Positions 26,630 to 63,800 are shown, counted from the stretch's first letter. The stretch is DNA of 64,000 nucleotides from Protoeuglena noctilucae (GCA_958009085.1 OY253682.1:806001-870000), one strand, 5' to 3'. Translations and numbers: made by a program. Notes: a model not told the origin generated them from the letters alone.

Positions 26630-29154
26630 TCACTCCTCGTCGCCGGAACTGGAGGCCCCGGCGTCCTTGAACGGCGAGACGAGCGGCACCTGCTCCTGCA
26701 GCGCCAGCTCCAGCTGCATCCGCTCTCGCGTGACAAACGCGTCCACCGCCGTGCGCAGCCGAGGGTCCCGGATGTAGTGCGAAGAGTACGTCAGCGCTGG
26801 GAGGTAGCCCCTGCAGGTTATTAGAAGCCAGGAGGGGCAAAAGTGTATGGTTAGGGTTAGGGTAGCAGCGTCATCGGGGCTGCACAGGAGGCTATGCGTG
26901 CCTGTCCCACTGCCACTGCCACCTTCGCTGCCACCCCCACTGCCACCCTCACCTCTGTATCTTGTGCTCCCCCTGCGCCCCCGCCTCCACGCGCCCCAGC
27001 CCCCTGGCAATCGCCTCCTCCAGGGCCTGGTAATAGCAGACCTCAAAGTGCAACCCGGGCACCTCCCTCGCGGGCTCGCACCCCCAGTTGCGGCCGAACA
27101 GCGCATGCGACCCTACCAGGTTCAGCGCCCCCGCTATCAACTCGCCCTTCCGAGGACCTGCGGGGGCCAACAGAAAGGAGGCAGTCAGGTAAAATGTAGT
27201 TGTGCCGTGACCAGATGAGGGCAAAAGCCCCGCCGCTTGCCTTTCAAACACCACATGTGCATCGCATCTTCTGCCACTCCCCTGCCACCACCAGCAGCAC
27301 CCATACCCTGCCCTGCCCAATTTCCACCACCACCCCCCTCACCCTGCCCCTCCTCCGCCACCACCAGCAGCACCCTCTCCCCCATCGTCTCCCCGAGCAT
27401 CTGGAAGAAGTCCCTCGTCAGGTACGCCGTGCCCCACTTCTTGTTCACGGTCGCCAAATACCACTTATAGAAGCGGTCCCAGTGGCGGGGGGTGATGGCC
27501 GAGCCGGACAGGCGGGAGCAACTGAGATGGGGCAGTGGGGTAGAGAGGGTGGGTATGGGGGAGCCCGACAACCAGGAGCAACTGAGATGGGGGGAGCGGT
27601 GCGAGGTGTGGTAGGTACAGCTCACTGTAAAGCTTTAGAAACCAGCCGTGGCATCCAAGTGAGGTTCATAAGGGCATTGTCACATTTCACCAACGCGTTC
27701 CCATCCCCGCACCCCCACTCACGTGATGCCCTCCTTCGCCACCCTCTTGCGTTCCTGGCGGATGGTCTTGCGCCGACTCTGGCGCAGGCTCATCAGGAAG
27801 TCGTCGAACGTCGCATACCCCGCGTTGGACCAGTGGTACTGTGAGGGAGGACGTGATGGCACATATGTAGTATTTGATACAAAGGTACATGCATAGGGAG
27901 ATATGGACATGTATTGATGATAGAGAGACATATGTGGAGAGCTGGCCCAGCAATGCTGTGCTGTTGTGCCCTCCTTGCTACCTGCTACCACCCCTCTACT
28001 ATCACCCTCTCTTTACCCACCCTCACCTGCATCCCCGCCCTCCTCACTACCACCCCTTTACTCTCACCCTCCCACACCCCTCTCTCACCACCTTCTGTCA
28101 CCCACCCTCACCTGCATCCCCGCCCTCCTCGCGAACCCCTCCCCCTCCATCTCCTCCCACTCCCCCTTCGTGTTGAACGTCACGTGCGCAGACGACACGT
28201 CGTACTCCTCCGCCACCATCCTCAGCGCCCGGGCCAGCGCGCCGCGGACCGTGGGGCCATCCAACCCCTTTCGCACCAACAGCCGAGGGCCGGTCACGGG
28301 TGTGAAGGGAACGCAGGCCTGCAGCTTGGGGTAGTAGGAGAACCCCAGCTGCCGGGCGAACTGCGCCCAGCTCTGGTCGAAGACATACTCTCCATAGGAG
28401 TGGCCTTTGAGGTAAGCCGGGCAGCACCCGACCAGTTTGCCCCCGCCGTCCCTTGCCAGCAGGTGCTGCGGGAGCCATCCCGTTTCGCGCGACGCCGAGC
28501 GGCTCTCCTCTAAGGCCAGGAGGAAGGAGTGCAGGAGGAAGGGGTTGACCTCCTCTGCGGGAAAAGGAAGAGAGCCACTCAGGTGGGGCGAGTAGTGAAC
28601 GTACCCATAATTCGACGCGTCGCTGCGACGTTCTCGCAATCGTCGCGGGTTCTCACCGCCTCCCGTGGCGCACGCGTCCCACTCCTCGGCGCTGACGGAC
28701 GCAATTGACGACGTGGTGGTCACGGTCAGTTCCAGCGGCGCGGTCGCGCTCGCGCTCGTCTCTCCGCCAGCCGCGTCCCTGCGCGGGTGCGGGGAGGCAG
28801 ACGACGCTGTCTTCAAGAGTTCCACAAGGAGCAGAGGTCGTCAATAAGCGCAGGGCAGCTCGCGCGCTTGCGGAATCACAGATCGCAGGTTTTCGCACGG
28901 GCTCGCGTCGCGCGATGCGAGGCTCCCGGGCGCGTCGTGCGTGGCACTCGCCTCACGCTCGTCTCCAGGTCAGTGCGGCCACCGTCCGCGGCCCAGGTCT
29001 TCACGCGTCGAATTGCCGGGCTGTCCCCCCTCTGCGAACTCCAACCCACGGCCGCGATGCGCGGGCGCTGCCAAAACCTCCGCCTGGTCGGCAACGCGGT
29101 CCTCTGCGATATCCCGCACGCTTCGACCGCGCATTGCTGATGCGGGGGCCGCAT
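26630..29154 (-). CDS. FemAB-like GNAT-fold protein (DUF482-type), multi-exon; start uncertain
   Basis: [103 protein letters not shown]. Confidence 0.92.
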
Positions 29155-29574
29155 CGCGCCCCCACTGCTAGCCGGGGACAGAGATGCCGCAGAGAGGCCC
29201 TCGAACCTCGCGCGGACTCGGATAGCTCAACCGATACCGGCAGGCGACAGACTCCATGCAATCGATCGCGATCGGCGAACTGCGTCTCGCGCGCCTCGGG
29301 CCCGGGTTTCGGCTCCGTCTTGCAGAGTCACGCGAACGTCAGAGCCCCCCTGTCCACCCAGGACCCTCTTGCAGCGGCATCTCGTGGCGAAGTGTAGATA
29401 TCTGAGCATACCCTCAAGTGCACGTGCTGCAGCGATTGTTGGATTGAGCCCCGCCGCCCCCGTCCGCCCCGACCCGCACCCCCGTGCCTGCGCTGCTGCC
29501 CAGGAGGCCACAAGCCCTACATGGCATCGTGCACGTAGTGACCGCATTCTCTCACTAATCAACTTGCCATCGCG

Positions 29575-30613: not shown

Positions 30614-30751
30614 AGACAAGTGCTTAAAAACTGATAGGTGGTGCAATATAGAGAAGGCGATAGGGAGCCGGTCACGGTTCAAAACTGGGCTTGACTCGCC
30701 TATCGATGTTCAGGGCGCTTTAAACAACACCAACCATTGATGCTGCCAATG

Positions 30752-33700
30752 CTACGTGGCCATCTGCACGCCCCGCAGATGCGCGGGCGGCTGCGCGACG
30801 CCGCCCAGCGTGAAGTCCATGCCCCACCCGCCATCGTCCGCACCCGCGCTCAACTCATCGCGCCGCCTCGCCACCCGCAGCACCACCCCCGTGGCGCTGC
30901 GGCTGGAGAGGAGCCCCGCGGTGCGGGGCTGGAAGCCGGCCACTGGGGGCAGAGGGGGAGAGGAGAGGTTGGGTAGGGTGAGGTGAGTGGGTGGGTGGAA
31001 AGTCCGGGGATGGGGGCAGGCGAAAGGAGGTGACAAATGTCGCATGCATGTTGCGTGCACACTACAGGTGCTACAGGTGCTGTCCCCACCCGTCACCACC
31101 TCAACCTTTCCCCACCCACTACCCCTCACCCAACCCCACTAATACCAGCCCCTCCCGACCACCCCTCACCCATCACCACCCCCACCCCAACCCCACTAAT
31201 ACCAGCCATCCACCCCCGCTCACCCGTCACCACCTCGACCTCCCTCGCCAGCACCTCCGCCAGCACCGCCCTTGCCGCCGGCATGGCCACCTGCTGCCCT
31301 GCCAATACCCTCCCTGGGTGTTTACCGAAAGGCACATACGCCCTGTCATCGCGAACACCAAGGTCCTTGGCTCTCTCAGCAAACCACCGTTCTGGCAGCC
31401 ATTCGTGGGGCCTGGGCCACGCGGCCTCGTGGCGGTGGAGGAGGTGGGTGCTGGGGAGGCAGAGGGTGTGCGGGGGGACCTTGTAGGGGCCAATCTGTGA
31501 GGGAGAGGGGTGGGGGGAGAGGTGGTGAGGTGAGGTGAGGTGGTTGGACATGAGATGCGATGAAAAGGGGACAAGAGGATGGGGTGTCGGTATTGCAGTG
31601 TTTATGACTTACCAGCGCCCCCCTCTTGCACTCTACAAGCACCGTCACACTCACTCGTCACTCCCCCGCACTCACCAGCGCCCCTCTCTTACACATCATG
31701 GGTACGGCCCTCGCGGGCGGGTGCAGCCTGAGTGTCTCCAGGACGCAGCAGGTGAGGAAGGGAAGTCGGGAGAGGGCATCGCGGGAGAGGGGGGAGCCGC
31801 GGAGGGACTGGGGGAGAGGAGAGGGGAGAGGAGGGGGTGAGTGAATGAGACATGGATTTTAAGGATGATGAGGGGGGAGGGTGGTGAGAGGGTGAGTTAG
31901 TGAGACATTAACTGAGAGGGTGATGAGGGGAGAGCCGCGGAGGGACGAGGGGGGGGGAAAGGGTGGTGAGAGGGTGAGTGAATGTGAGGGCGATGACGAG
32001 TATCAGGCGAGGGGGTAGGGGCGAGGGGAGGGGGTGGTGACGGTGGTGATGAAAGAGGTTGGTGAGATGGCGATGCAATGGTGATGAGACACAACGCACG
32101 CCGCACGCACCCACTCTCACCCCTCTCACCCACAACCCCACCCCTCACCTGCACGGCCCTCCTGGCCTCCCCCGCGGCCTTGTCAATCCTCTGTGGCCGT
32201 TCCGCCATCATCAGCAGCGTCCACGCCACCGTCTGCGACAACACGCCCCCCGCTGCCACCACCACGCTGATGGCCTCTTCCGCGACAGTCCTCAGAGCCA
32301 CGGAGTCACCGGATCGATTCCTGGGGGAGGCAGGTGGGGGAGATATCGGAGAGAGATATGAGAGAGAGGTGTGGGAGAGATTTGGGCGATATGGGAGATG
32401 AGAAAAGTGGGATGGATGGGTCGTGGTAGTGATAAACGCAGTTGGAGAGGGTCATGAGAGGCAAAAGAGACTTAAAAAGTGGACGGATTGAAATGACTGA
32501 CAACAACCACTCCTCACCTCTCCCTCAGCATGTGAGAGAGCATGTCCGGGTGCGCCCTCCTGTCCGGCACGCCACCCCTCAGCCTCTCCTCGATCACATC
32601 GAATACCCACGCCTGCAGTGCCTCCTCTGCTTTCTCCGTCGTGATATCGGACGAAAGGGAATTGGGGGCGGAGAGCACACGCCTGGGTGAGGGTTAATGG
32701 AAGGGAGACACTTGCTTGTTAACTGGCAATGTAGATGCATGGACTGGGAAAGTAGTGATTGTACTGCACCACTACTACGGATAAAATACCAGTTCATTTC
32801 ACGCTCACCTGCACGCACCCACCAGCCCCCATCGCCACTCACACCCACCCTCTCCACCAAGCACCTCCACGCATTCCCCAGCCCCATCCGTCATCCACAC
32901 CAACCCCCACCCCCCCACACTCCCTCACCTCCACGCATTCCCCAGCCCCGGGTGCCTGGCCCCATCTCCCCGCACCCATCCATCCGCGTCCGTCCCCAGC
33001 AGCGCCTTTGCCAATATCATGAGAGCTGCGTCCTCTGCCCATCCCTGCACGTCCACCGGGCGACCCAGCGAGGCACAGAGGGACCAGGCGGCCTGGGGTA
33101 AGTGGAGGTTAACAGTAGTTGGACATGCGATGAGATGTTATGGGATCAGATGCCATGTCACGTCATGCGAGGCGCAGAGAGACCAGGCGGCCTGGGGTGG
33201 GTGTGGAGGTGTATGATAGTTGACATGAGATGATGATGGGATGCAATACACGCAATGCTATGCCATGTTATGCGCGCACAGAGACCAGGCGGCCTGGGGT
33301 AAGTGGATGTGGGGATCGATATGAGATGAGCTTGTATGTGATGACATGAGATGACATGCAATGCAGTGTCATGAGAGGCGCAGAGGGACCAGGCGGCCTG
33401 CGGTGCGTGTGTTAAGGTTGAGATGACGATCGACATGCAATGCTATGCCATGCCATGCAGTGCACTGTAATGCAATGCAATACCCAGAGATACCAGGCAT
33501 CCCCCCATGTGCTCCCCCACACCCCACACCACCCCTTCCCCCCTCACCTCCCCCGCCCCCTCAAACAGCGCCCCCAGGCACACCCTGGGTAAACCCCCCT
33601 GCAGGTACCCCTGACTCAGCGACGCGGCCCCCGCGGCCTCAGACCCCGCCCAGAGGTGGAGGCGCAGGTGGGGGGACGCGGGCCATGGCTCGTATTCTGA

Positions 33701-35258: not shown

Positions 35259-38200
35259 ATGGGAGTCCAGGGCCTCTGGGCGCTGCTGGAGCCCGTGGGC
35301 CGCCGCGTCAACATCGGTGAGATATTCATCGCGGCCTGTCATTCGCTCATTGTCTGCGCGGCAACTATCATCGCGAGAGCCCGCCGGACGCCGCGGGGCG
35401 ACGAGGACGACGGGGCACTTGGAATTATGGCTCTGGGCCCGTGCCATGGATTTGTCCGCGCTCGAAGAGGACCCATGTGTGTACAGGTCATGCATATGCA
35501 ACTGTTCTGTCCACCCACAGAGTCCATGGCGAACAAGAAGGTCGCGGTGGATGCCTCCATCTGGCTGATGCAATTCCTGCGCGCGATGCGGTGAGTGGGC
35601 CGCGACGCTCGCATCCGACTGGTGTTCCGTTACGTATGGGTCTACTGCGCCCTCGCGGTGCCGCTGCTCAGCGTACCCCGCGCCTCCAGCAGGCACAGCG
35701 GGCGTCCTCGCAGCACGCGGCGTGGCTAGCTCGCCGCTGCTCGTCGGATCCCACATCGAGCATCCTTGCGAGCATCTCCGCTCGTTCTGCGTCCTTCTCA
35801 GGGACGAGCGGGGGGATCTCGTCCGCAACGCGCATCTCCTGGGCTTCTTCCGACGCATCTGCAAGCTCCTCTTCAACCGCATCCGCCCGGTCTTCGTCTT
35901 CGACGGCGCCACGCCCGCGCTCAAGAAGCGCACCGTAGCGGCCAGGAGGCAGCGCAGGCGAGGGCAGGAGCGGCTCGCGCGCGCGCGCGGCTGCATTACC
36001 GCACTGCGCAGCCACGCCGCGACGCCGCACGGGCCGTTCGGGGTCATCCGGGAGACGATTTGGGAAGTCCTTTATGCCGCGCAGGTTTGCCCAGGAGGCT
36101 AAGCTGAAGCGCGCTGCCGAGAAGCTCCTCATCGCGCGCCTCAAGCAGCGCGCCGCGATGGAGGTGCTGGGAGGAGGTGAGGAGGATCAGATGGCTGATG
36201 GCTGGCGTGACCTTGATGTCGCGATGAGGTATATCCTGGCAAGAAAGCGTTTGCCCCGTTGTTTTCTCAGGGGAGGGCGACGAGGGAGAGGGGGCGGGTG
36301 CAGTGGAGGACGGCGGCGCTGCAGTGGCGGGAGACGAGGTGAGGGCGTTGATACATGCATATGCATGTGTTCATATACATGATAGTGTGTTGTGCATATG
36401 ACTCGCTGTTTGACTCGCACAGCGTCTCTATAGATGGATGGTCGTGCGTGACCTGGGCATGACCTGTGCTGCTGTGACGTTGCATGAATCGCAGGGTGCA
36501 GAGGAGAGAACCGAGGCGGAAGCGGGGCCCTCGAACGCGGCAGCTGTCGGCAGGGGAGAGGAGGCGAGCGGTGGGAGCGGCGCGGGTGGTAGGGAGGGTG
36601 GTATGGCTGGTGTGCGTGGTGCGAAGAAGGGAGCAAGTGGGGCGAACAAAGCGAGTGGAGCAACAGGGGCAGGCGCCGGCAGTGCGGGTGCCGCTGCCCG
36701 CCGCCGTGGCTCCGGCCGTGCCCAGCATCGCAGTGAGGCGGTGCGAGGGGCGGTGCGGGAGGCCATGGGCAGGGCCAACACCCTGGGGGAAGCGTCGACA
36801 GGTGAGGGAGGTTGAGAGGCAGTGATACTCAACTTTTGGGGTTATACTAAGAGATGGGTGCTGTGGGTGGCACTTACTGCATGGGGAACTACCGCAACTC
36901 TGCGAACACTGCAACCCTCACTCAACAGTTATCTCTTGCCCCCCCACGTTGTGCAGGGTCCGAGAGCGGTGGGGAGGGCGGTGAGGACTCCTCCAGCAGC
37001 GGTGGGGACATTGCCCTGCCAGAGGACCTGACGTCGCTGGACCCGGCCGTGCTTAGGTGAGAATGAGCCCCTTTTCCTGTTACCACCACTACTACCCTCC
37101 CCATCTTTGCCACCCCCACTGCCACCCCCATTGCCACCCCCACTGCCACCCCCACTACCACCCCCACTGCCAACCCCACTGCCACCCCCACCGCCACCCT
37201 CACCCAACCCCCCCCTTCCCCTTCCAGCAACCTCCCCGCGTCCGTCCAGTTCGACATCCTCCAGAAAGCCCGGGACCAGCAGTTCTCCAAGAACCGAGAG
37301 ACGTTTGCCGCCGTGGCAGCCGCCCCCAAGGGCTTCAGCTCGGCCCAGATGCAGAGTTATTTGAAATCGGTGGAAATGAGGCGGAGAGTCGAGGAGATTC
37401 GAAGGGCGACCAGGGTTGCTGGGAAGGAAGGGGTGGAGGCACGGCCGTTGGTGGCTGATAGGGGCAGGGAGTATGTCTTGACTAAGAAGGGTGGGGGTGC
37501 GGGTGGGGGGCAGAGGAAGGGACGGGGGTGGTGGGAGGATCAAGAGGGGTTGGATGGGAAAGGGGAGGGGGAGGGGGCGGGGGATGTGGGGTGGCTGGGG
37601 GTGGGGTCAACGGGGGCGGTGGTGGGGGGTGGGGGTGCGGGTGGTGGTGGTGGAGGTGGAGGTGGGAGGGGGTGGGGGGAGTTTGGGGAGATCGCGCCGA
37701 TAAAGGCGGAGGGTGGGGATGCAGGGGCTGGTGGGGGTGCGGGTGTGGGTGTGGGTGGGGGTGGGGGTGGTGCGGGTGTGAGTGCTGGGGCGGGTGCGGA
37801 TGCGGGTGGCGTGGATGTGGATATGGATGTGGATATGGATGTGGATATGGAGATACCAGAGGGCTTGGCTATTGATGATTTGTTGGAGGATGGTTGTCAA
37901 GGGTCATCTGGGGGAGAGTCGTTGCAATGGGAAGAGGAGGAGGGGATGGGGGGGATAGGGGTGGGAGATGCGGGGGGGCAGATTGCGCAGGTGAGGGTTG
38001 GGTGGTGGGGACGGGGGTGGGGGAGGGAGGGGGCCAGATTGCGCAGGTGAGGTGTGGGAGGGGTGGGGGTGAGGGTGGTAGTGAGGGTGGGGGTGAGGGT
38101 GGCAGTGAGGGTGGCAGTGGGGGTAGCAGTGGGGGTGGCAGTGGGGGTGCAGGTGTGCTGGCCACTTTTGCGCTGGAGAAGCGGAAGCATAGAGTTGTCT

Positions 38201-41200
38201 TACTACTTTTACTATTACTATTTCCCATACAATTACCTAATCATCTCCCCCCAGGTGGCCACCCGTGTTCTGGAGGAGCGGGAGCAGCGTCGCCACTGGC
38301 GGGAGAGGGCGGCCGTGCGCCAGAAACTGTGGAGCCGGACGGCGGGGTTCGTCATGGGTCGCAAACTCGCGGACTGGACGGGTGAGGGTTGAGGGTTGGT
38401 GCTTAATGGCTGGTTGTGTGAGGGGGTGTGTTGGGGTGGTTTATACGGTGGGGGTCATTCTCCTCATACTTTTTGGTACCCATCTTTCTTATATCCATCG
38501 ACGCCCCTCTGCTCTGCCTGTCACCCGCAGAAAAGGATGGGGAGGGGAAGGGCGCGGGCGGCCACGGCATGAGTGGGGGTGAGAGCGATGGGGTGGAGTG
38601 GGTGGAGGAGGGGAATGGTGCGGGTGGCAATGCAGTGGGTGGCAATGCGGGTGATGGTGAGAGCGGGAGCGATGGGGTGGAGTGGGTGGAGGAGGGGAGG
38701 GATGAGGGTCGCGTGGCTGACGGCGGCGCTGACAGTGGGCGTAGGAATGGGGTTGCAAGAAAGGGTCAAGTGGTGGCGTTGGGTCTGGAGGACTCATCGG
38801 GAGACGAGGGGTTTACTGCCACTGGTACTGGCATGCGCCAGAAAGGGAGCATCGGTGCGGGTGCGGGTGTAGGTGCCGGTGCGGGTGTGGGTGTTGCGAG
38901 GGCGGGGCGTGGGGTGGTGGTGGTGGGGAGTGATTCAGAGGGAGGGGAAGGGGAGGAGGTGGATAAGGCGGAGGGGGAGGGGGCGGTAGGAGCACGGGGG
39001 GAGGGAGAGGGAGGGGTGCCAATCGCAGCGGGGCAGGGTGCGGTGCAGGGTGCAGTGGAGAGTGGGTTACAATTGGCACAGGGAGCAGATCAGGGTGCAG
39101 CGAGAGGTGGGTCGCCACAGCCACCGACGTCGCAGCCACCCTCGCCACTACCATCGCCAGCAGGGCAGCCTCTGTTGGTGGCTGAGCAGGGCTTGTCATC
39201 GCCAGAACAGGGCTTGCCACTGGCAGAGCAGGGTTTGGGATTGGCAGAGCAGCATCTGTTGTCGGCAGAGCAGGGGGCAGAGCAGGGCGTGCGATTGGCA
39301 GATGAGGGCCCGTCCCAGTCAATGGCAAGTCGTGATGTGGAGGGTGCGGCTGCCCTAGCCCCTCCCACGCATGCTGCCACTGCCCCCGCCACTACCGCCA
39401 CCCCAGTTGCTACCACCAACCCAGCTACCACCACCGCCGCCCCAGCTGCCCCAGCCACAGCCACCACCGCCCCCGCTCCCACCCCAGCTGCAACAATCAA
39501 CGCAACCGCCACCACCAGCGCTGCCGTCCCACCCACGACCATCACCGCTACCACTGCCGCCCCTGCTACCACCGCCACTCCAGCTGCCCTACCCACCATT
39601 TCTGACCCAGCTGCCCCAGCTACCACCCCCACCCCCGCCCCCTCCGCCCCCCTCTCCGCGTCTGCCCTGGCCTCTGCCGCGCGCCGCGAGGCTGGGGAAT
39701 CGGATCTCCCCCACGTGGCCCCGATTGAGGACTTGGAATCTTACCTGGATGGACTGGAGAGGGAGGCTGGGGTGCTGGGCAGGGACGTGAGGCAGGCGAT
39801 GAGGCACGCGGACGCACCCACGCCCGAGGTGAGTTGGTGAGGGTGAGTTGGTGAGGGTGTGGGAGAAGAAGGTGCGAGGCGTTGGAGGGTTGTTAAGTGT
39901 GTGTGGCGTGTACGGATGGGTGGGGGTGTGGGTGTGGGTGTGGGTGGGTGGGATCTATGGCTTGCCTGATATAGTCGTTCCCTCCCTCACAGCCATAACT
40001 CATTTACCACATCCCAACCATGTCTCAATCTCTCTCCCCATCCATCCCCAGATGTACACGGAGTGCCAGGAGCTCCTGCAGCTTTTCGGCCTGCCCTACA
40101 TCATCGCCCCGACCGAAGCCGAGGCTCAGTGTGCTTATCTGGAAAGACAGGGACTGGTGGACGCGGTGATTACCGATGACAACGACGTGTTCCTGTTCGG
40201 TGCCGAAACCGTGTTCCGGCGACTATTCCAGGAACGGCAATGGGTGGAGGAGTACCGCATGTCTGACGTTTCGCGCGAGCTGGGTCTGACACGGGATGAC
40301 CTCGTCAGAATGGCGTTGCTGCTGGGGTCCGATTACACGGAGGGGGTGCAGGGGGTGGGGATCGTCAATGCGGTGGAGGTGCTGAGGGCTTTCCCAGGCG
40401 ATGAAGGGCTGGCAAAGTTCAAAGAGTGGATGAGGGGGCCGGACGAGGAAGTGTTGGAGTTGGCGGGGGTGGGGGGGGAGGGGGAGGGTGAGTGGTGGGG
40501 GTGGTTGGTGGGGGTAGATGGGGAGGGTGAGTGATTGGGGAGTTGAGTGGGGGTGGGGGGAAGGGAGAGGGTGAGTGGTTGGGGGGTAGTGGGGGTGGTG
40601 GGGGAGGGTGAGTGGTGCAGTATAGCCAGGCTACCATGGACCATGTTAACCAAAGCACCTGCCACCCTTGCTATCCAACCTCGCTCGCTCACCCCACCGG
40701 CACGCACCCACTCTCGCTCACCGCCCCCTCCCCCACCCAGACACCGACGCTCCCCTGGCTCGCGAGTTCAAATCCCGCCACAAACGCGTCCGGCGCACCT
40801 GGCAGGTGCCCGAATCCTTCCCCTCCCAGCAAGTGGTGCAGGCCTATTTAAATCCGAGGGTGGATGCGGATAAGACGAAATTCACCTTCGGGAGGCCCGA
40901 TTTGGAGATGCTGAGGTGAGTGGCATGGGAGGAGATGTGAGGGTGGCATGTGGTGTGATGTGAGGCTGTGAGGAGAGGTGAGGGGTTGCGAGGGAGGAGT
41001 GTGCAGTGCGGTACGTCAGTCGCTGTCACTGCCAACCCACTGCCACTCCACAGCCACCCCACTTCCACCCTCACCCTCACCCCCCCTACCATCCCTTCAG
41101 GTCCTTCTGCCAGTCTCGCTTCGGCTGGGCGGCCCCCCAAGTGGATGCGTTGGTGGTGCCCGTGCTGCAGGCCTGGGAGAGGCGCGAGGTGCAGTCGCGG

Positions 41201-51030: not shown

Positions 51031-51310
51031 GTTTCAGGTGTGTCAATTTAACCGCGTCCACAGACCGAAAGGGGCGGCGTGGTGGTGCCGGGGCGGCGGA
51101 AATCGCCGCGGCCGTGCCCGCCGTTCTGACAATCGCCAGAAACAATCGAGCGTCGCGAGCCCGACGAAGCCAGGAGCCGATGCTTTCCACGAGCATCACG
51201 TCGGCAAGTCACGCGACGGAGCATCCGCTCGCATCTCGCTCGCATGAGGCCGGCCTGCGCCAGGTGGCGACCCCTCGGCTGACGCCCGGCGAGCGGGAAC
51301 GGGGCGTGCG

Positions 51311-54300
51311 ATGAACAAGATATCCTCGTTGCTTCAGGTGAGGGAGCGGGGCCCGCAGCTACTTCACGCACCGCACAACATGGAACTGCGCATCCGACAT
51401 CTCACGCGCGCGCCCCTCGCCGAGGCCGGACGCTGGGACCCTCGCGACGGCGTGGCCGGCATCGACGCCTCTCATCGCGATGTCACCGCGTGATCCCCGC
51501 TCCCCGCTTTGCACCGCAGCTGCCGGCTGACCCGCCGGGTCCCGAGCTCTCCCTCACCCCCGGCCAGCGCCTGGCTGTCGCGGCTCGCGAGCTCCTGGAC
51601 TCCACCGGGCCACGCTCCTCGCGCGGCATCGAGCGCCCGAGCCTGCTATGGGAGGGCGGGCCGCGGGGATCCGGGCGAGTCGCTGCGCCGAGCTGGGCTG
51701 CACGTGTCCTGAACTGACCCAACACAACTGCGTCACCCGCTCCGCTCCCGGCCACTCAACCTGCTTAATCTGACTCCGGGCCACTGTTCTGCTCAGCTCA
51801 GCTATCGATCGCTCGCCTTGCTTACCCTGCTTTGGCCATCACCGTCGAGTCACCCTGCCTGCCTCCTTGCTCCCGCAGTCCCCAGAGCGCCCGCGTTTCC
51901 GCCGGCGTCGAAGTGAGTCCGCTCAGCGCTTAGTACGCATTCCCTCGCATCAACCCGATTTGATCCTTGTACCAAGCCCTGCCGTTGCCCTTTGGACTGC
52001 CGCTCGCACGCTGCACACTGTGCGTCTCGCATTCCCACACTGCACCATCTCTACCAAGCCCTCCTTCACCGCCATTCATCATCATTACCCCACCCCCTTC
52101 CCCGTCTGCCCCCAGCCCGCCTTCCGCACCGCCCCCTCCGCTGGCCTCGGCATGAGCGGCACCCTGGCATCCCAGCTCAACGCCCTGCACGCCGCCGCGG
52201 ACCGGGAGATGGAGTCCCTCGCGAAGGGCCTGCACAGTGCGGCGGCGGCGAGGACGGGGCCCTTGGCCCCGTATGGCGCGCACCCTCGCCTTGACCTGGA
52301 CAGGGCCGGGGCTGAGACGCCAACCGGCAGATTGGGCGACATGGACGAGCGGGGTATGGCGACGGCGATGGGACACATGGCGAGCACCATCGGGCGGGCC
52401 GCGGAGAGCGCCGACAGCCCCCATCGCCCGAGAAACGCGCGAGGGGCGGTGGCACCCCGCGTGGGGGTGGTGGCCCGAGACTCGCCACGGGCCAGTCGTT
52501 CCGATCGATCCACGGCAGCGACGACAGCGCGTACCGGGGCCACCACACGCGCGCGGAGGGTGCGCCTGCAGCATCGCCGTCCCGACGGAGGGGCGCGCAC
52601 CCGTTGCTGGCGGGCGGTGAGAGCTTGGAAGAGGAGGTGGGGAGCGCGAGGCGGATCCTGACGCTCTTGTCGCGCACCCCGCACGACGCGAAGCTGCTGG
52701 CGGAGTTCCGGGGGGCCCTGAAGCGCATCCGGGTGGCGAGGCGGTACTGGCGGCCCCAGCGGACGCGGTCGTGGAGGGCAGAGGACCTGGAGGTGAGCAA
52801 TTAGAGAGGGTGGTGGTGGTATTGGTAGTGGCAATGTTGATACTGGTAGTGGTAGTGATAGTGGCATTGATAGTAATGGTGGTAGTGCTGGTGAGGTAGT
52901 GGTAGTGGTAGTGGCGGTACTGGCGGCCCCAGCGCACGCGGTCGTGCAGGGCAGAGAACCTGGAGGTTAGCATTTAGAGAGGGGTGTTGGGGTGACTGAT
53001 AGTAACTGTGTATTGGTGAAATAATGATGTGATGGGTTGTGGAGGGCGGAGGACCAAAGCTCTCACTGCAACCCTCACCCCCTTACCCCCGCAGCGTGCG
53101 GCCGAGGTGGCCCCTCTCCCCCTAGACTGGGAGTCGGTGCTGTGGCGGGTGCTGGTGGGCCCCGATCGCGTCACACGAACGCGGGGAGAGCGACTGGTCA
53201 CCACCATCGCAGAGACCAGGAGGTCCCTCCGCAAGCACCTCCCTGTGCTGCAGCAGGCATTCGATGCGTACCACGCCGCGCCGTGCCTGGCCACGGGGCT
53301 GGGGGGCGGTGCGGGGGCGACGGGGGTGGCGGGGGCGGGGGGGAGGGAGAAGGAGAGGGAGCAGGTGAGGGGTGGGGTGAGATGAGAGAGATGAGATGGT
53401 GGAAGCAGGTGAGGGAACAGGTGAAGTCGGGCTGCGGTTAGTGCGAGAGAGAGGGAGAGGGAGCTGGTTCGTGATTTGTGCACTCTGTTACCCATCGCAC
53501 ATCGCCACTGTTACATTTCCCCTTACACGCAGGCCCCCTCCCACGAGAGTCCCGACGCCCCCTCTGCCCACGCGCACTCTGCTTCTGCGGGGGAGGAGCG
53601 GCTGGGGGCAGTGCCGGAGGATGAGGGCATGAGGGAGGGGCAGGTGAAAGGGGGTGTGAGTGACTGGGTGTAACGTGGCGTGAAGGGGTGTGACTGGGTG
53701 TGGATGGGTGTAGATGTGACTGGGTGTTGGTGTGAGAGGGGCAGGTGAGGGGAAGGGGGGGTGGAGGTAATCTGTTGCTCCTCTTTCTTACTCCCTCTCA
53801 CGCACCCCACCATCCCTTAACCCCACCCCCCAGGACTCCGACGGCGCCCCCCCCCGTGTCACACACCACCACCCCCCCTCACTCACTCACCCACTCACTC
53901 ACCACCAACCCGCCCCACTCACTCACTCACTCACCCCACCCTACCCCCCTCCCTCCACCCCAGGACTCCGACGGCGCCCCCCCCCGCCCCCCCAACGCCG
54001 ACGGCTTCACTTTCCCAGAGGACGACCTGAGGCGCTCCCGGGACGTTTCTGGCGACACCCTGACAGCGGGAGCACTGTTCCGGTTACTAAGGGAGCTGGA
54101 CGTGGTGATGGCGCCTGTGACGTTGGCGAGGCTGGCCAGGGTGGCGTGCACCACGCCGCTGCCGCCACGGGGGGATGCGGCCAAGGTGAGGGGTGTGGGG
54201 GTGGTAGTGAGGGGTGCGAGTAGGGGTGAGGGGGGTTGGTGGGGTGGTGGTGGGGGGATGAGGGGTGAAAGGTGAGGGTGAAGGGTGAGGAGTGGCAGTG

Positions 54301-57300
54301 AGGGTGGGCGGGCGAGAGCACCAACGTCCACTACCCCATTGGCTCTCACTCTCTTCCCTATCACCATTACTAAGATCCCCTCTCTCTCTCCCCTTCTCCC
54401 CCCAGGCCCTCAAGCGCACCCTGTCCCGCATGCCCAGCTCCAACGCCCTGGCTGCCCGGCGCCTGTCCCTGCGCACCTCGAGCATCAAGTCCCTTCGCAA
54501 GGCGCTGTCGGCAGAGACGGCGGCGGCGGAGGCGGGGGCGGGTGAGGGTGGGTGGGGTGGGAGTGGGGATGGATGGGGGGGGGGTGAAGTGGGGTGGGTA
54601 AAAAGGGGTGGGGTGGGGTGGCTGATGGGAGTGGAGTGGCATGAAATAGGGTGGGGTGGGTGAGAAGGGGTGCCGTGGTGTTGTTTGTGTACGGTATGAG
54701 TGGACATGCACTGTCAGTCGTGCTCTTCATATGTTCATAATCATATGTCTCTCGTCGCCCATCGCAGCTGCGGTGCAGTCCCCCTCCCCCGGGGAGGAGG
54801 AGGCGGGGGCAGAGGGGCGCACGAGCGAGGGGGGGAACGAGGAGGGGCAAGTGAGAAGGAGTGGGATGGGGGTGGATGGGATAAGTAGATGAGATGACAG
54901 TGGATGGGTGCATGAGGGCGAAGGCTGGTGCCAACAAGCCACGCTTGCAACGCCTGCAGTCTCCATGGCCACCCTACCCCACCCGCCCCCCGGCAGCCGT
55001 CCCAGCCCCTTTCAATTTCTACTGCCACACTTCCACACCCCTTCACTTTCCATTGCCACCCTTTAGCAACCCCTCCCCACCCCCGCAGCCAGCCCAACCC
55101 CTTCATTTCTTGATGCCACTTACCACCCCACTCCACCCCCACTCCCCGCAGCCATCCCCGCCCGTCAGCGCGGCCGAGGCAGACCCCCACCCGACCCCGC
55201 CCCTGTCCACCCTGGGGGGCCAGATCCGCCGCACGCCCACCGTAAAAGGCGAATCCGCCGCCGCCGGGGATCGAAGCGCCGACCGGGGCGCTGGGGCGGA
55301 GGCGGGGGAGGGGGCGGGGGCCGCCAAGCGTCGGTTGCAGAAGCAGCCGTCTAAGAAAGCCTGGTCCATGTCTATGCGGCCGCCCGAGCCCAAATTCGAG
55401 GTGAGGGTTTGGATTTTTGACATGGGGGAGGAGGGTGGGTGGGATTGGTGGGGGTGGCGTGCCAGTGTGCGAGTTGCTCGGGAGACGAGTTGCTCTGTGC
55501 GTACTGCCGCCCTGTGTGCTATCCACCCACACTGCCACCCCCACTGCCACCTTCACCCTCACCCCCACTGCCACCCCCACCACCACCCCCCACACCATCA
55601 CCCCTCCCTCCCCCCAGGGCGGTTTGGGCCCGTCCCTCTCCCTCGCCCCCCGCCGCCGCAACTCCATCCCCGCCGCCACCCACGCGACCTCCGCCAAGCG
55701 CATCGCCGCTCCCTGCGACTTCACGGGCGGTCCCTACGACCGCCAGCGCCGCATGGACGTCTTTCACTTCGTGGAGGCTCTGCTGCGGGTGTCGCACGTG
55801 GTGTTTGGGGGGCGGGTGGGTGGGCCCAACCCCAGCCGCCTCGGGAAGGGCGCCGGGCAGCAGGAGGGGGGCGGGGAGGACGAGCTGTCGCCGGTGAGGG
55901 GTGGGGTGGTGGATGGGATGCATGGTGGGATGCATGGGATGAGTGGTTGTTAAGCGAGGGTGATGAAATGTTGCCGGCGAGGGCGTGGGGTGGATGGATG
56001 GGGAATGAATTGTCGATGCCTTAGCTCTGCAATCAACCACACCTGTTTGCCCAACCACTCAGCCCCTTACACTCCCAGTCACTCACCCACAGGCCGAGAA
56101 GCTCGACGCCCTAACCCTGCCAATCAACCACATTCCCTTGCAAATCCACCAATTTTCTTGCCAATCCTAATCATTTCCTTATCCTTATGTGCCCCGACAC
56201 CCCCCCAGGCCGAGAAGCTCCATGCCCTGGCCCTGCGCCTCGAGGCCTCCCTGGTGGTCCTGGGGGCGGAGATGGAGGGCATCCCCACGGGCAAAGCCCC
56301 GCCGCGGTCGCTGGGGGTGTCGATGCGGGGGCTGGCGTCCAGGCAGGGAGAGGAAGGGGCGGGGTTGGGGATGGGGATGGGTTTGGGTGTAGGGGTGGGT
56401 GGGGAGGGCGAGGGGGTCATGGAAGGGGTCATGGAGGTGCCGGATGCGGAGGAGGGGCTGTGGGACGCCACGGTGGGGGCAGGTGAGGGTTGGGTGGGTT
56501 GTAGAGAGGATGTGGGGTGGGTGGGGTCAGGTGCAGGTGCAGGGTTGTGCGGTGTGGGTTGCAATGCCATGTCCATCGCCGTTGTTACCCCTCGCAACGC
56601 TCTCTATTTTTCACAGCAACACCCTTACTACCACCCCCACCCTCACTGCTACCCCCACTGCACTGCCACCCTCAATACCACCCTCACCCCCACCCCTCAC
56701 CCCTCACCCGCAGCCCCCCGCCCTTCCCCCTCCGCCCCTCCCTCGGAGGCGGGTCTCTCCGAGGACCACACCCCAGCCTCCAAGGCAGACGCGATCTTCA
56801 CAGCCATGCACCACAGCCGCGACATCCACGAGGTCATCGGCCCCGCCGAGGGACTATTGCAGTGGGTGTTCACGTTCCTCGCCGTGCACAACTCCGTGGA
56901 CAGGGACGGGGAGGGTGCAGCTGCCGTGGGCGTGAAGGGCGAGGGGGAGTGGGATGCGGGGGCGGGGGCGGTGGCGGCACCTGTGCCCGCAGAGGGGTGC
57001 ACCGCGACGTTCAACGACGTGCTGCACCACTTGCTGGTCTGCGACATGGTGGGGAGGGAGGACGGCATCACGGCTGCCGCGGTGGCGAGGGCATTCCAAG
57101 ACACGACCGGGCAGGCGCCCGCACAGCCCCGCGTGCACCCCGCCAACCGGTGAGGGGCTGGCGGGTGGGGTGGGGGCGGATGCTTGTAGTGTGGATAACG
57201 GTTATACGTTCTGTGCTGCAGCCAGCCTCAGGAGCATGCCCTTGTCCCGACCCGCACGCTCCCACCGCTCCCGTCTCCCATCCGCTCGTCACGTCAACTC

Positions 57301-57539
57301 GCCCATGTGCACTTTCCCGCTTTCCCAGGGGCCTGGAGGTGACGTACGACGAATTCCTGGAGATGCTGGTGCGCCTGGCCCACACGGCCCGGCCCCTGGG
57401 CGAGAACGTAAGCGTGGCGGGGCAGCTTGAGCACCTGCTGCTGAATGAGGCTGTGGGCCTCCTGCCCGCCAGCGAGCGCGTCATTGGGCTGTGGCAGGCG
57501 CTCGAGAAGCTACCCACCTACTCCAATGCCGACTACTGA
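51311..57539 (+). CDS. Large multi-exon hypothetical protein with degenerate EF-hand-like segments; the start may instead be 52152
   Basis: Exon chain includes HLPVLQQAFDAY, TLTAGALFRLLRELDVV, RMDVFHFVEALLRVSHVVF, ATFNDVLHHL and EVTYDEFLEMLVRLAH; stop at 57539. Confidence 0.6.
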
Positions 57540-58038
57540 GCGAGATTGCTGTGGTAGTCCACCAACGCGGGTTCGGCTGGTAATTGAAGACGATCTGAGT
57601 AGGAACGCCTGGTGCGCTGACTAAGGCAGCTGCAGGTCTCCCCGGCCTGTCCACGCAGCACGCGGCACCCGCACCGGCATCGACGCCGACGACGGCGCAG
57701 GCGCCCGCCCACCGCTGACCTGGCGCGCAACCAGCACGGGGCATCGCCCACGCTTGTCCACGCTCCGACCGCGGGGCTCGGGGCCGGCGCTGCGCGTATC
57801 TTCATCGTGCAGCCGGGCAAGAGCGAGTGCGAGCCGCGGGCGACCATCAGCGCATCAGCGGAGTGCGAAAGCCGCAGCTTGGAAGTCACACAGCCCTCAG
57901 CCTCCCGGGGTCCGCGGCGCAAGCTTCCGAGTCCGGTTGGGGCGTCTGTCCGATAGGTGAGTAGTAATACATGTGCACGTCAGGACCGCGCAGGTGCCGG
58001 GCGTCGGCCGCGGCAGCTGCGGGCGCAGGGTGGGACGC

Positions 58039-59726
58039 ATGCTGGGGGCAGCGAAGGCAGTGCGCGGGGCCGTGTGCGCAGGTCGGCGTGGTGCGCTGGG
58101 CGGACGTCAGGCACTATAAGCGTCGCAGGTCACCATGGAAGGGGGTCCGCGCGTGGGTGAGGCGCGCAGAGGGAGGGCTTTGGTTGCACCAGCGCAGGGC
58201 TTTGGTTGCTTCGTTGCGACATTCAGCGCGGTCCGGTCGCCTGCGCAGGGTGGGGCGACCTGCCCGGGGAGGTACATCGCGAGATCCTGCGGCTGGTGCC
58301 GCTGCACGACGCGACGGCGGCGCGGCGGGTGTGGCGGGAGATGCGCGACGAGGTGGACGAGGTGTGGAGGGCGTGGGGCATCCGGGCCACGGCGGCGGAC
58401 AGGCGTGACGCCATTCGCGAGCGTTTGATCTATCGCACACACGTCACGGAGCTCGAGTGCGGTCCGCTGGCGGTGTACGCATGTGACGGGTCCCACGCGC
58501 ACCACCTGGCGAGCCTGGGACTGTGGTGGCTGGCGATGCTGGTGGCGGAGGCGACGGGCATCAACGGCATGTCATGGGCCGTACGTGACTTGTGGCACCT
58601 CGACCAGTCGCCGCTGATGGTGGCGGTGCGGGCGCGGCGGCCGGTGGGGCGCGGGGCGGATGGCGAGGTGGAGTGGGCGTACGCGCTGGGGGAGGAGGAG
58701 GTGGGGCGGGCGGTGCGGGCCGCGGTGGCGATGGGGGCGGACGTCAATGTGCGGTTGCATCGAGCATGGCCGCTGATGACGTACTGCGCGGCGCGGGGCT
58801 GCCTGGGGGCGGTCAAGGCGTGCCTCGCGGCGAGGGCGGAGGTGGATGCGGCTAACTTCATCCACATGGGCTGGTGGACGGCAGTGGTGCATGCCGGACG
58901 CGGGGGTCACGAGGCGGTGGTGGAGGCGCTGCTGGAGGCGGGGGCGTCGGCCAAGGTCGGACACGGTGGTCGTGATCAGACGTTGGCAGCGGTGTGCGGG
59001 GGTCATCCGACGCCGGTTATCGTGAGGCGGCTGGCGGAGGCGGGGGCGGACGTCAACTCTGAGGACGTCAATGGGACGGCCCTACGTCATGCCGCAAGGC
59101 ACGGCAATGTGGCCTTGTTAAAGGTTTTGGTGGAGTTTGGGGCCGACGTGGCTGTCGCCACCTCACATGGGCACACTGCGATGCACAAGGCGGCAAACGG
59201 GGAGGTGGTGCGGTGGCTGGCGGCGCATGGGGCGAGCGTCCAGGGCGACGGGGGCAATGACTCCCCACTCCAGAGCGCTTGCTCTGGTGCCCGCGTCGAC
59301 GCCGTCCGCGCCCTGATTGAGCTGGGTGCGGACGTCGGTTACAGGGACAGGCAAGGTGGAATGGCTCTCCACCGCGCAGCAGGGTCTTACCTTCAGCAGA
59401 GTTCTGTCGAGGCGACGCAGCTGCTGCTGGCGGCGGGGGCGGACGTCACTGCTGTTGATAGGGAGGGCCGGACCCCCTTGCACAAGGTTATGTGCGCGCC
59501 AGTTGTGGACCTGCTGCTGGACGCCGGCGCAGACCTGGAGGCGCGGGATGAGTCGGGAAGGACGCCGATTTGCATCGCTGCGTTGGACTTGCCGCTGAAA
59601 TCCCAGGTCGCGCTGCGGATGGCTGACCGCGGCGCGGACCTGGTCAACACGGGCGGGGAGCCGGGCCTGGTGCAGCGTCAAGTGGCGAAGCTGCGGGCAG
59701 AGCACAGTGCGGCTGGTCCGGCGTAG
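58039..59726 (+). CDS. N-terminal F-box-like plus ankyrin-repeat protein
   Basis: WGDLPGEVHREILRLVPLHDATAARRVWREMR is F-box-like. About 9 ankyrin repeats follow (e.g. TALRHAARHGNVALLKVLVEFGADV, GRTPLHK..LLLDAGADLEARDESGRTPI). The main exon is about 1.48 kb. Confidence 0.85.
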
Positions 59727-60840
59727 GACGGCGGCTGTGGCAATGGCGGTGGCTGCGGGGCACTTAGGTAAGGGGCGTGCCAGTCTTACAACGGATGGCA
59801 GAGGTGCTTGCGTGGCAGCATGTGCAGCACCGTCGTCTTGCATGGGGCGTGCATGGCCTTTACAGTGCCTGTGCCGAAGTACGGAGGTGCAGCTGGGCGT
59901 GGCATGGACCGACTCACGGCTACTTTGCTGGCCAATCGAGCCCTGTCGACTCAACTGACTGTCAGCTCTACATCCTCCCCGCGCAGTGCTGAGGCAAGAG
60001 GTGGCCCTCAAGGGGTGGCCACGGTGGCCCCCATGCGGCGTGGCGAGGCAGCGCGCGGGTGACACCTGATTCGGTGCGGCAAGTCGAGCGGTGGCTGGTA
60101 GGACCTTATCCGGGTAGGGTAGGCTTGGCTCGTGGAGCATTGGGCAGCGTGGGCGACATTGATTGGGACGATGGCCGGGCAGACTGTCGACTTATATAAG
60201 TGGCGTCATCGACTGCGGTAGAGGACTTATTGCTGCAGCCTTTGCTTAGAAGCCCTGTTGGTACGCGCCTTGCTTTGAACTCCACAGCCCTCAGCGGCGA
60301 TATGCTCTGGCCCCCCGCCCTATGCTTTTTGCTGCGGGATGCGTGAGGCGAGGCCATGAGCGTACTCCACGTCCGCAGTTGGTGCAGTCACGATCGATCC
60401 TGCTGATTGAATGTGGCGAACCGCGTCCCAGCCTCACCTCCTGGCACGCTCCACCTCTGACGGGACGACCAGCAGCGCTGGCTCCTGAGGAGGTCTCAGT
60501 TGCGCGAGAGGACTAATCTGAGCTCAGCTGCGCATGATTGCTGTGCCGGGACGGCACGAGGAAGCGCGCTACGTAAAAGAGGCATACCCTGCGTGCGTTG
60601 ACCTGCGGTTTTGAGGACCGTGTGAGACCGGACGTTTTTCTGGGTGAAATACGTCATCAGTGTCGATATCGTGGCGGTCGCGCTGGCGCGTGGACGCCGA
60701 TAGTCGCGACGTGACGCGAGAGACCCGTGTGTGGGTAACCAGGCTGCCGGCGCTTCTGGATGTCGACCGCTGACGGGGCGGGGTGAGGGTACGCGCGTCA
60801 GGTTAAACCGTCTGGAAGCTTCCGAGGGCTGGGCGACGCC

Positions 60841-63800
60841 ATGGAGGGCCCGGGCCTGCTGGGTCAACTCGACGACGGCCACCTCCTGAACGCCGCCGAT
60901 GGGCCGCTCGCGTTCGGGCCGCGATGTCCCGCGTGCTACCTGCCACCAAACCGACTGTGCCTCGAGCGCTTCTCCGTCTCGCGATGGTGAGAGCCGCGCG
61001 CCGGCCGCGGGCGCGGGGGCCCTACCATACCCGCGGGATGTGACCCGCCGCGCGGCCCGCTCCCGGCGCCGTATCGCCGGCCGCGTGTGTACAATCTGGC
61101 ACATTGCGTGTATTTGTGTGCTCGGATTGCGTCGGGGACCGCGGAGGCATCCCCGGGCACGCGCCCTATGCTGTCGCACCACGCATGACCGTACGCGTCA
61201 CCCTGCCCGCACGCTGACCACCACTCGCCGCCATCAACCGCCCGCATATGCATTGATTTCTATCCATCTGCTAATCTCGATAGACAACTGTCCCCGCAAG
61301 CTCACCCGCGCGACTTCAGCAATCCCCCTGGCCGCACCGCCCCTCCCACACGCATCCACCCTCCCTCACCCCCTCCCCTGCCCCAGCCTTGGCCGCGGCA
61401 AGGCCCGGGAGGTCCTCGAGGCATTGGACGTGGACACGGGTCACACCGTAGCGTTGAAATGCTACCGACTTGGAGCGAGCTCGGTCACCCAAGCGAGGGC
61501 GGTGGCGGATGAGGTGGACATCCACTCCCGCATCGGTGAGGCGACGGGGGTAGGGTAGATGTGAGATTGGGAGTGTGACTGTGACTGGGAGTGTGACTGC
61601 GATTGAGAGAGTGAGAGTGAGACTGTTAGACCGGTGATGTTGGCTGCCACCCCCACTGCCACCCCCACCCTTGCCCTCACTGCCACCCTCACCCTCACTC
61701 TCACCCCCACTGCCGCCCTCACCCTCACCCCCAGACCACCCCCACGCCATCCCCCTCTGGGCCGCCTTCAAGGATCGTGAGTCCGTGTACATTCTACTTC
61801 CCTTAGCCGCTTATGGCGATCTCTGCAACAGCTTCGACCGCATCAAACACGACACGGCAAGCGTGGCGGAGGTGAGAGGGGATGGGGTGGTGTGTTTGTG
61901 ACACGGCCAGCGTGGCGTAGGTGAGGGATGGGGTCGTGGGGGTGTATGATATGATGGGTTTCATGTTTGGGAGACAGCGAGCGTGGCGGAGGTGAGGGGG
62001 GGTGGGGTAGGGGTTCATATAATGCTGGAATGTGATAACGATTAAGAGAGAGTGAGCGTGTGCAGTTGGCCTGAGTGCTTGGCCGTCCCCACCCCTTCCT
62101 TGCACCCACCACTCACCCACCCTCACTGCAACCCCCCCTCTCTCCCCCCAGCTCGTGGCCATGCCCCTCCTCAGCTGCCTGGCCCACTTGCACGAGCGAG
62201 GCATCGCCCACCGGGACATCAAACTGGAGAACGTGTTTGTGGGGTCGAGGGGCAACGTCATGCTTGCAGACTTTGGGCTGGCCGTGGAGCTGACTAGGCG
62301 GTGAGTGATATTTGTGATATGCACTAGTGATATATATACTAGCGATATGTACTATTGATATGCGCATGTCACTGTCTGAGTGTCATTTGTAATGAGGCAC
62401 TGGCGCTGGTGAAGCTGACTTCACACAGACCAAGCCCTTTCTTACCCTAGCACGCTCACATCACACAACCTCGCACCTCGCTACACAGCACCGCACCACC
62501 CCCACCCCCTCCCACCACCCCATTATCCCCTCCCCTCCCCTCTCCTTCCCCCCAGCCGCGCCCTGACTCAGGTGGGCACGCTGTCAGTCATGGCGCCAGA
62601 AGTGCTTCTGGCAGATCACGTGACCGGTGCCCAGGGCCCCCTTCGCTGCGAGAGGCACAGAGACGACAGGAGGGAGTACGGGACGGCAGCCGACGTGTGG
62701 GCGGTGGGAGTGCTGGTGTGGGAGATGCTGACAGGGACGGGTGAGTGGAGATGAGACGGGGTTAGGTGGGGGTGCTGGTGTGGGCAGGGGTTGATTGGTG
62801 AGTGCTTGGGCGGTGGGGTTGCTCGTGTGGGTGGGGGTGAGACGGGCGAATGGTTAGCATAGGTGTGGGTGAGCAGGTGGACTGTGGGTGGAGTGGCGAT
62901 ACCCATGGCTGCCACCGTCACTCCCACCCTCAACACCACCCCCGCTGCCACCCCCACTGCCACCCGTAACATCGCACTCTCACCCCTATCACCCCCCCAG
63001 TCCCCTACCGCGCCTCGTGTGACCGTGAGATGACCGACACCCATTGCCACCCTTAACACCCACCCCTCACCCCTCACCCTTACCACCCCCAGTCCCCTAC
63101 CGTGCCTCGTGCGACCGTGAGATGATCGAGACGATCGCCACTGGCATTCAGGACCACCCCTCCTATCCACGCCTGCCATCGGACGCAAGGTCCTTCATCG
63201 AGCAGTGCCTCACGTGGGACCCCGCCAAGAGACCCACGGGTGAGATGAATATTGCATATTTGTGCTTATTATAGTATACTATATGCATTGCATGTCTTAT
63301 ACAGACACATGTGTCGTTGCCATGTCTCACCTGGGACCCCGCCAAGAGACCCACGGGTGAGGTCACTATTACATATTCAAACATACGGATGTGTTTTTTA
63401 GTCACATGTATTCGCATGCATGCGGATGGCAACTGCGCACGCGCTACCGCAGTCACATCCACGGTCGTCGGATGTCCATGATAATTGTTACATCCTCCAT
63501 ATAATCACATCGATACAACTACACACCTTACCTGTCTTTCACCCCGCCCGTCTCACACACTACCCCCCCCACCCACCCCCGCAGCACGCCAGCTCTACGC
63601 CCACCCCTTCGTCACACAGCGAAGCAACTACGCAAACTGGCGGTCCCTCGCGCCCCCCCGATCCTCCATCGACGACAGGGTATGCCCTAACAACCAGGGC
63701 AATGCACCCAGCAACGTCAACGCCGGCGATGCGTACGGTTTGGACCGTGCCACCTCCCAACCCCACCACGCCCGCGGCCCCTCCGGCTCATCCCGGCATT

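Follow-up and report, generated by a model that had tools for sequence, protein, structure and literature searches.

Does an intron that begins with G-rich repeats and ends with C-rich ones depend on the pairing of its two ends, or does each end carry repeats of its own? The question is raised by a 64,000-nucleotide (nt) stretch of DNA from Protoeuglena noctilucae (GCA_958009085.1, OY253682.1:806001-870000), referred to here as the window, in which a series of introns between positions 26811 and 63584 run from a G-rich 5' half to a C-rich 3' half. An initial annotation had proposed that the two halves pair and bring the splice sites together, as reported for complementary repeats at the ends of fish introns. 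Our analysis of the window, to which all statistics below are confined, leads us to favour on balance another reading, in which each intron end carries its own low-complexity array, the complementarity between the two is generic, and the introns are an extreme variant of the GGG...CCC arrangement.

We scanned the whole window for skew junctions, requiring a G-C skew above +0.5 in the left 60-nt flank and below -0.5 in the right. This returned 20 G-to-C junctions and one C-to-G junction, all within 26.8-63.6 kb; none lies before 26892, and positions 1-26000 are free of them. The binomial probability that one or fewer of 21 junctions would be C-to-G is 1e-5, and the G-to-C excess recurs in nine of nine scan settings (34:13, 22:3, 14:1, 32:9, 20:1, 12:0, 31:6, 21:2 and 14:0). 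It had also been proposed that the polarity follows the direction of transcription. The two do agree, but they could not do otherwise, since a G-to-C block keeps that order whichever strand is read. What carries information is that C-to-G blocks are almost missing.

Along 22 bipartite introns normalised for length, the skew drops from +0.87 to -0.78 and the two-part form that had been described is evident. The corresponding values for 11 other introns confirmed by RNA are +0.17 and -0.36. Since the 22 introns were selected by skew, this profile is a description rather than a test. The four plus-strand introns that had been named (40916-41100, 55401-55617, 61536-61734 and 62741-63092) begin with GTGAG and G-runs and end with C-runs and CAG, with the boundaries as proposed. 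Their minus-strand equivalents hold as well: four introns of a P450 gene are skipped in RNA, and 26811-26952, in the gene called GNAT, is supported by continuity of the FemAB_like profile. The composition of the halves needs one amendment. The 5' half is G/T-rich as described (G.525, T.232, A.168), but the 3' half, said to be C/A-rich, is rich in C alone, with T at least as frequent as A (C.51, T.215, A.186).

A sample free of this selection comes from RNA joints. RNA contigs from three runs and DNA contigs from one run were placed on 44001-64000, and 15 of the 55 RNA joints, all within 44-51 kb, were used. The first 50 nt are G-rich in 4 of these 15 introns, all of them from the P450 gene, which means that introns of two classes occur side by side. 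The last 50 nt have a skew of -0.27 or lower in 12 of the 15. A C-rich 3' end is thus general to introns here, and it is the G-rich 5' arm that marks the special class. These counts also indicate that the two ends behave as separate features.

Repeat vocabulary and pairing of the halves

The arms are imperfect tandem arrays with periods of 6, 12 and multiples of these, as detected by Tandem Repeats Finder (TRF), and their units include CCACCC, TGCCACCCCCAC, GGGTGA and GGGTGGCAGTGA. The units that adjoin the donor are G-rich (GGGTGA, GGGTGG, GGTGGCAGTGGG) and full of the donor core GTGAG, and those that adjoin the branch-point and acceptor region are C-rich (CCACCC, CCCTCA, CACTGCCACCCC) and full of CTCAC, the exact reverse complement of GTGAG. 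The separation is nearly complete: GTGAG occurs 60 times in the 5' halves and once in the 3' halves, and CTCAC 40 times in the 3' halves and never in the 5' halves. We take CTCAC to fit the branch-point consensus. The hexamer spectrum of the 5' halves correlates with that of the reverse-complemented 3' halves at r 0.82, A/T positions included; the value is 0.63 when the 3' halves are complemented without reversal and -0.06 when they are taken on the same strand.

Each vocabulary is the reverse complement of the other, which allows every G arm to zip onto every C arm. The introns are accordingly predicted to fold into rods: contacts between the two halves account for 85% of the pairing probability within these introns, compared with 36% in ordinary ones. 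The 5' splice site is predicted to find its partner at relative position 0.72 (0.35 in ordinary introns), 33% of the first 40 nt (15% in ordinary introns) are paired to the final 60 nt, and the duplex energies of an intron's own arms range from -38 to -155 kcal/mol. To this extent, the proposal that the halves join and bring the splice sites together agrees with the predicted folds.

As a selected function, however, it fares poorly. It had been tied to folding that is better than that of dinucleotide shuffles made within each half, and that advantage is slight at best, which essentially goes against it. The minimum free energy (MFE) of the 22 introns has a mean z of -1.58 against shuffles of the whole intron, but of -0.62 against within-half shuffles, where 1 of 22 reaches -2 or below and the 11 ordinary introns average -0.44. 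A separate folding run agrees for two of the named introns: 55401-55617 has an MFE of -98.1 kcal/mol (z -2.87 against whole-intron and -2.07 against within-half shuffles), and 61536-61734 has an MFE of -69.4 kcal/mol (z -0.66).

Nor do the two arms of an intron appear matched to each other. An intron's own 3' half is not preferred as duplex partner of its 5' half (rank 10.7 of 22, permutation p 0.78), and Watson-Crick local alignment scores own arms at 10.1 and arms of different introns at 10.7 (p 0.75). The G-excess of the 5' arm is uncorrelated with the C-excess of the 3' arm across the 22 introns of this one window (Spearman -0.05, p 0.81). The sense strand folds better than the antisense strand in 12 of the 22 (p 0.13), which gives it no advantage. 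A further suggestion, that pairing masks internal echoes of the splice sites, is not supported either: by prediction the authentic donor, too, is largely paired (probability of being unpaired 0.31-0.33), and internal copies of GTGAG show no significant extra masking relative to the first donor (0.22 versus 0.31, p 0.12). The pairing is generic, without sign of intron-by-intron co-adaptation. It is physically plausible and the proposal is partly supported, but pairing is not supported as a selected function.

Arrays at each intron end and competing explanations

We propose that these are ordinary U2-type GT-AG introns, each end of which would have grown its own low-complexity tandem array, most likely through slippage and duplication in tandem where intron meets exon. 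The donor-side G-runs and acceptor-side C-runs may be tolerated, or may be useful as intron-defining signals in short GC-rich introns, and such end signals would explain why the G-to-C order alone exists. On our best reading, it is by chance or by recruitment that the array vocabularies are reverse complements of each other. Generic zipping would then produce the predicted rod in the pre-mRNA and draw the intron ends close. The end-specific reading is also favoured by introns with a strong G arm and no C arm, such as 38047-38254, whose own duplex has an energy of -56 kcal/mol compared with a mean of -117 for its 5' arm with the 3' arms of other introns.

Probable traces of such growth are found at the boundaries themselves, where tandem duplicates of an exon edge plus its splice site lie within introns, in up to three donor or two acceptor copies with few mismatches. 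Donor copies occur at about 61872, 61921 and 61992 (stretch 61860-62000), and the donor at 63240 has a copy at about 63355 (63225-63360). Acceptor copies occur at 62999 and 63092 (62950-63092), at 53833 and 53963, and at 56092 and 56208. Further duplicated exon edges with splice sites are found at 28015 and 28100, where the copies are 90% identical (28015-28139), and at 37975-38050. In the kinase gene, the reading frame is kept by the outermost boundary copy only. These copies point to tandem duplication across intron boundaries, and suggest that an intron gains length when its own boundaries are duplicated.

A single 12-nt minisatellite (C form TGCCACCCCCAC) turns up repeatedly, in the introns of genes that are unrelated. 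Its arrays lie at 26913-26952, 37108-37203, 38061-38149, 41027-41070, 55523-55590, 61644-61668 and 62909-62965. The C form is found in the 3' arms at 41027, 55523, 61644 and 62909, and also at 37108, and the G form in the 5' arms at 38061 and, in a minus-strand gene, at 26913. DNA contigs of metagenome run X2 join 55550 to 62939, 55566 to 61644 and 61692 to 62940, and the depth of this run is 2-4x higher in the bins of the joined arrays.

Several observations count against the growth of separate arrays at each end. This minisatellite, present in at least seven places, is oriented to match its arm wherever an intron is defined, a pattern that slippage seeded at the boundaries does not explain by itself and that suggests dispersal or inversion of a shared repeat. 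The 3' arms favour A-bearing units (CCACCC, 39; CACCCC, 36) over units of pure pyrimidine, which mirror complementarity would explain more simply than a polypyrimidine signal. Across the 15 RNA-confirmed introns, the skews of the first and last 50 nt are weakly associated (Spearman -0.55, p 0.03). The within-half shuffle nulls are conservative, because zippers without a fixed register would show no excess over them even if the pairing were functional. The intron set has weaknesses too: 9 of the 22 introns are independently backed by RNA contigs, by Pfam continuity or by homology, the other 13 having GT-AG boundaries and open frames only, and the statistics took 53632 as the start of intron 53644-53833, 12 nt too far upstream.

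The closest competitor is that pairing is a selected function, in which the arms would zip, bridge the donor to the branch point or acceptor and perhaps hide internal decoys. We consider this possible but doubtful. The predicted contacts between halves and between intron ends, the large duplex energies and the mirrored hexamers are all as it would have them, and it has precedents in fish (AC)m-(GT)n and human GGG...CCC introns (PMC4691745), but the within-half z scores lie near those of ordinary introns, own arms pair no better than the arms of different introns, arm sizes do not correlate, the sense strand has no folding advantage, the donor is itself predicted to be mostly paired, and decoys are not significantly more masked. 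Moreover, a hairpin works in either order, yet G-to-C alone occurs, and intron 4 of LCAT is still spliced when its C motifs are replaced by G motifs (PMC2481429). Rather unlikely, in our view, is a distinct algal intron architecture in which arrays of the donor core and of its branch-point-like reverse complement form a registerless zipper that pairs the right ends and silences decoys born by duplication.

We regard it as improbable that the introns derive from a mobile element, whether an introner or an element of the foldback or miniature inverted-repeat transposable element (MITE) type with inverted arms of tandem subrepeats. The arm-appropriate orientation of the same 12-mer array in unrelated genes, the contigs that join array sites, the higher depth there and the clustering of intron sizes near 200 nt would all suit such an origin, as would the lack of an intron at two XPG positions in the relative loci L001-L006. 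But eight aligned introns share no conserved core outside the arrays (mean column identity 49%, with the C-rich array region alone alignable), and the introns vary at the 3' end. Direct repeats in the flanks have a mean length of 2.50 nt, which does not exceed the 2.55 nt of ordinary introns, and the arm-duplex comparison of 22 introns revealed no element-specific in-register inverted repeat, so that a classical transposon origin is not supported. The missing introns are equivocal as well. Among distant XPG genes, a phase-2 intron lies one codon from 40916 in L011 and L013, and four codons away in L023, which fits an old intron as well as a new insertion. About as improbable, we think, are non-B structures, in which G-quadruplexes or R-loops of the G half would be stopped by the C half, pacing transcription or positioning nucleosomes. 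The strong positive and then negative skew fits this idea, and a canonical four-run G-quadruplex motif is present in 8 of 22 5' halves and in none of the 22 3' halves or the 11 ordinary introns, but 14 of the 22 introns are without such a motif, and the content of GTGAG and CTCAC is left unexplained.

On the loci compared, the bipartite form is lineage-specific. Our metagenome scan for relatives gave 36 loci, the best at 65% identity and none close enough for orthologous introns to be compared for covariation, and the six GC-rich loci among the relatives (about 31.5 kb) contain one G-to-C junction and no C-to-G junction. The introns of L023 that were inspected are not bipartite, and L011, L013 and L023 gave no G-to-C junction in the skew scan. 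The alga would offer a natural test bed for RNA bridging versus linear G-run and C-run signals in short GC-rich introns, with arms that are extreme and numerous and that lie beside ordinary introns of the same genes. The boundary duplicates bear, in addition, on the growth of introns and on the tolerance of decoy splice sites.

Intron models, genes and neighbouring sequence

The G+C content of the 64-kb window is 65.0%. In DNA this rich in G+C, GT-AG boundaries with open frames are permissive evidence: our calling of boundaries by continuity of open reading frames (ORFs) gave candidates on both strands. The codon-usage track was too noisy for gene models. The XPG-I exon at 40052-40450 has 1066 relatives, the best 120 of which have 64-73% identity; the named organisms among these 120 are all land plants or green algae (Viridiplantae), and none is near-identical. 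On this basis we treated the source as a marine green-lineage alga. A protein search with a P450 exon gave no match. The stretch at 54-64 kb is present in DNA and RNA contigs of marine metagenome runs and in runs of a coded organism, A.

On the minus strand, intron 26811-26952 of the FemAB_like (GNAT-fold) gene lies between exons matching FemAB_like profile positions 251-321 and 320-368. Its G-to-C junction is at 26892, and TRF reports a period of 12 at 26913-26952, where the G-form 12-mer array occupies the 5' arm. Telomere-like repeats (GGTTAGGGTTAGGG) occur within this intron at 26850-26870, and a similar run lies in an ordinary intron of the distant XPG locus L023 (4360-4385). Two further probable minus-strand introns are 31495-31675 (junction 31607), defined by GT-AG and open frames only, and 31808-32148 (junction 32090), which has candidate boundaries and an internal duplicated segment. 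Repeat family D18 has copies at 31787-31825 and 31925-31963 that are 85% identical.

The plus-strand XPG region includes the probable intron 38047-38254, found by the scan, which combines a strong G-form 12-mer 5' arm (period 12 at 38061-38149) with a T/A-rich 3' arm. The probable bipartite intron 38382-38530 (junction 38455) has boundaries set by ORF continuity. Intron 39837-40051 lies directly 5' of the XPG-I exon, which matches XPG_I at 2.4e-28, and L001-L004 align unbroken across its join. The scan also gave the probable intron 40488-40740, whose 5' boundary is ambiguous among GGTGAG repeats (TRF arrays at 40456-40617). Across the join of 40916-41100, six relatives (L001-L006) align unbroken. 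Arrays of G-rich 6-nt units (GGGTGA, GGGTGC) occur at 41361-41520 and 37560-37850 in what appears to be XPG spacer coding sequence and would there be translated into Gly/Glu-rich repeats; the repeat vocabulary is thus not confined to introns.

The minus-strand P450 gene has six RNA joints and a spliced frame of 565 codons, with a weak match to the p450 profile. In two runs, RNA contigs cleanly skip its four bipartite introns. They are 44212-44357, with half skews of +0.53 and -0.49 and support from RNA contigs of X10 and X11; 44569-44756, whose G arm is short and whose C arm is long (skew +0.73 in the first 50 nt and -0.82 in the last 50); 44922-45111; and 45236-45364, in which the 5' half is G/T-rich and the 3' half, more weakly, T/C-rich. 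The minus-strand intron 50053-50217 is an RNA-supported GC-AG intron that starts with GCGCGT; intron 47585-47673 starts with GTGCGT. Both starts match GYGCGT, given as the donor consensus of Micromonas IE-A (PMC3879977).

Between 53 and 57 kb on the plus strand, the probable bipartite introns 53365-53532, 54186-54405 and 55894-56092 come from the scan with GT-AG boundaries and open frames, the last with a second copy of its acceptor and exon start near 56208. The probable bipartite intron 53644-53833, called from the scan and the sequence, has such a copy near 53963, and the likewise probable bipartite intron 56483-56713 was found by the scan and bounded by ORF continuity, with TRF arrays. The named intron 55401-55617 rests on the sequence and TRF, which places its C-form 12-mer array at 55523-55590. 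An RNA contig of X9 is unspliced across 54716-55539 at a depth of 4.6, and may represent pre-mRNA or DNA carry-over.

In the plus-strand kinase gene, 61536-61734 is called from the sequence and TRF, and the probable intron 61872-62151, with its three tandem copies of the exon end and donor, from the sequence and ORF continuity. Intron 62301-62555, T/G/A-rich in its 5' half and C-rich in its 3' half, is preceded by Pkinase positions 106-149 and followed by 156-193; 62741-63092 is likewise preceded by 156-193 and followed by 211-252, and contains a copy of its acceptor and about 45 nt of exon start that ends near 62999. The probable last kinase intron, 63240-63584, was identified by eye and left out of the 22-intron statistics; it has an A/T-rich 5' part, a duplicated exon end with donor and a C-rich end.

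Two observations concern the window more broadly. The commonest hexamers of 1-26000 are of CpG type (GCGCGC, GCGCGG), and in 26001-64000, at similar G+C, GGGTGG and CCACCC dominate, also outside the listed introns. An ankyrin-repeat open frame lies at 58161-59726 (Ank_2, 2.5e-33), and the DNA depth of run X2 over 58008-60008 is 145-293 compared with about 14 around it, a 10-20x excess. This stretch is likely to belong to a multi-copy family or to be common to other organisms of the sample.

Comparison with known systems

Our keyword search of the open-access literature, supplements excluded, found no description of G-then-C bipartite introns in algae. Foldback transposons and MITEs have long inverted arms of short tandem subrepeats around a small loop. 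The introns described here differ from them in that no defined termini, target-site duplication or element-specific arm match was found.

Micromonas introner elements offer a second comparison, since they too are repeated intron sequence in marine green algae. They are near-identical full-length copies with donors typically of the form GYGCGT or GTGAGAC; in one of two papers, Verhelst et al. report no clear secondary structure, and the other describes a segment whose sequence complements the 5' splice site (PMC3879977, PMC4540971). The end-to-end similarity among introns of unrelated genes that is the hallmark of introners is absent from the eight introns that we aligned, which share low-complexity arrays alone and no family consensus.

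The fish precedent is real. In teleost (AC)m-(GT)n introns, the splice sites are bridged by AC repeats that lie 5' and GT repeats that lie 3', a function demonstrated with minigenes and by independence of U2AF2 (Lin et al., 2016; PMC4691745). As in these introns, complementary simple repeats stand at opposite ends of the same intron here, as the skew and the hexamer correlation demonstrate, need no fixed register to pair and, by prediction, bridge the splice sites. However, this fish order has the opposite keto/amino polarity. Long AC runs are also co-enriched with long GT runs across the fish intron (PMC4691745), whereas arm sizes are uncorrelated in our 22 introns.

There is also a resemblance to human introns. 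In intron 4 of human LCAT, G-rich and C-rich enhancers cooperate and a possible stem is dispensable; splicing is retained when the C motifs are swapped for G motifs (Murray et al., 2008; PMC2481429). Of the highly structured human introns, 16% of highly structured introns in human have at least three GGG in the first 40 nt and at least three CCC in the last 40, and their gain in stability over motif-preserving shuffles is very small (-113.85 versus -111.47 kcal/mol; PMC4691745). The order is the same as in the introns of the window, with G triplets after the donor and C triplets before the acceptor. What sets the algal introns apart is that the arrays fill the intron halves, at 50-150 nt each and with skews to about 0.9, and that a 12-mer minisatellite is shared among them, in a green alga.

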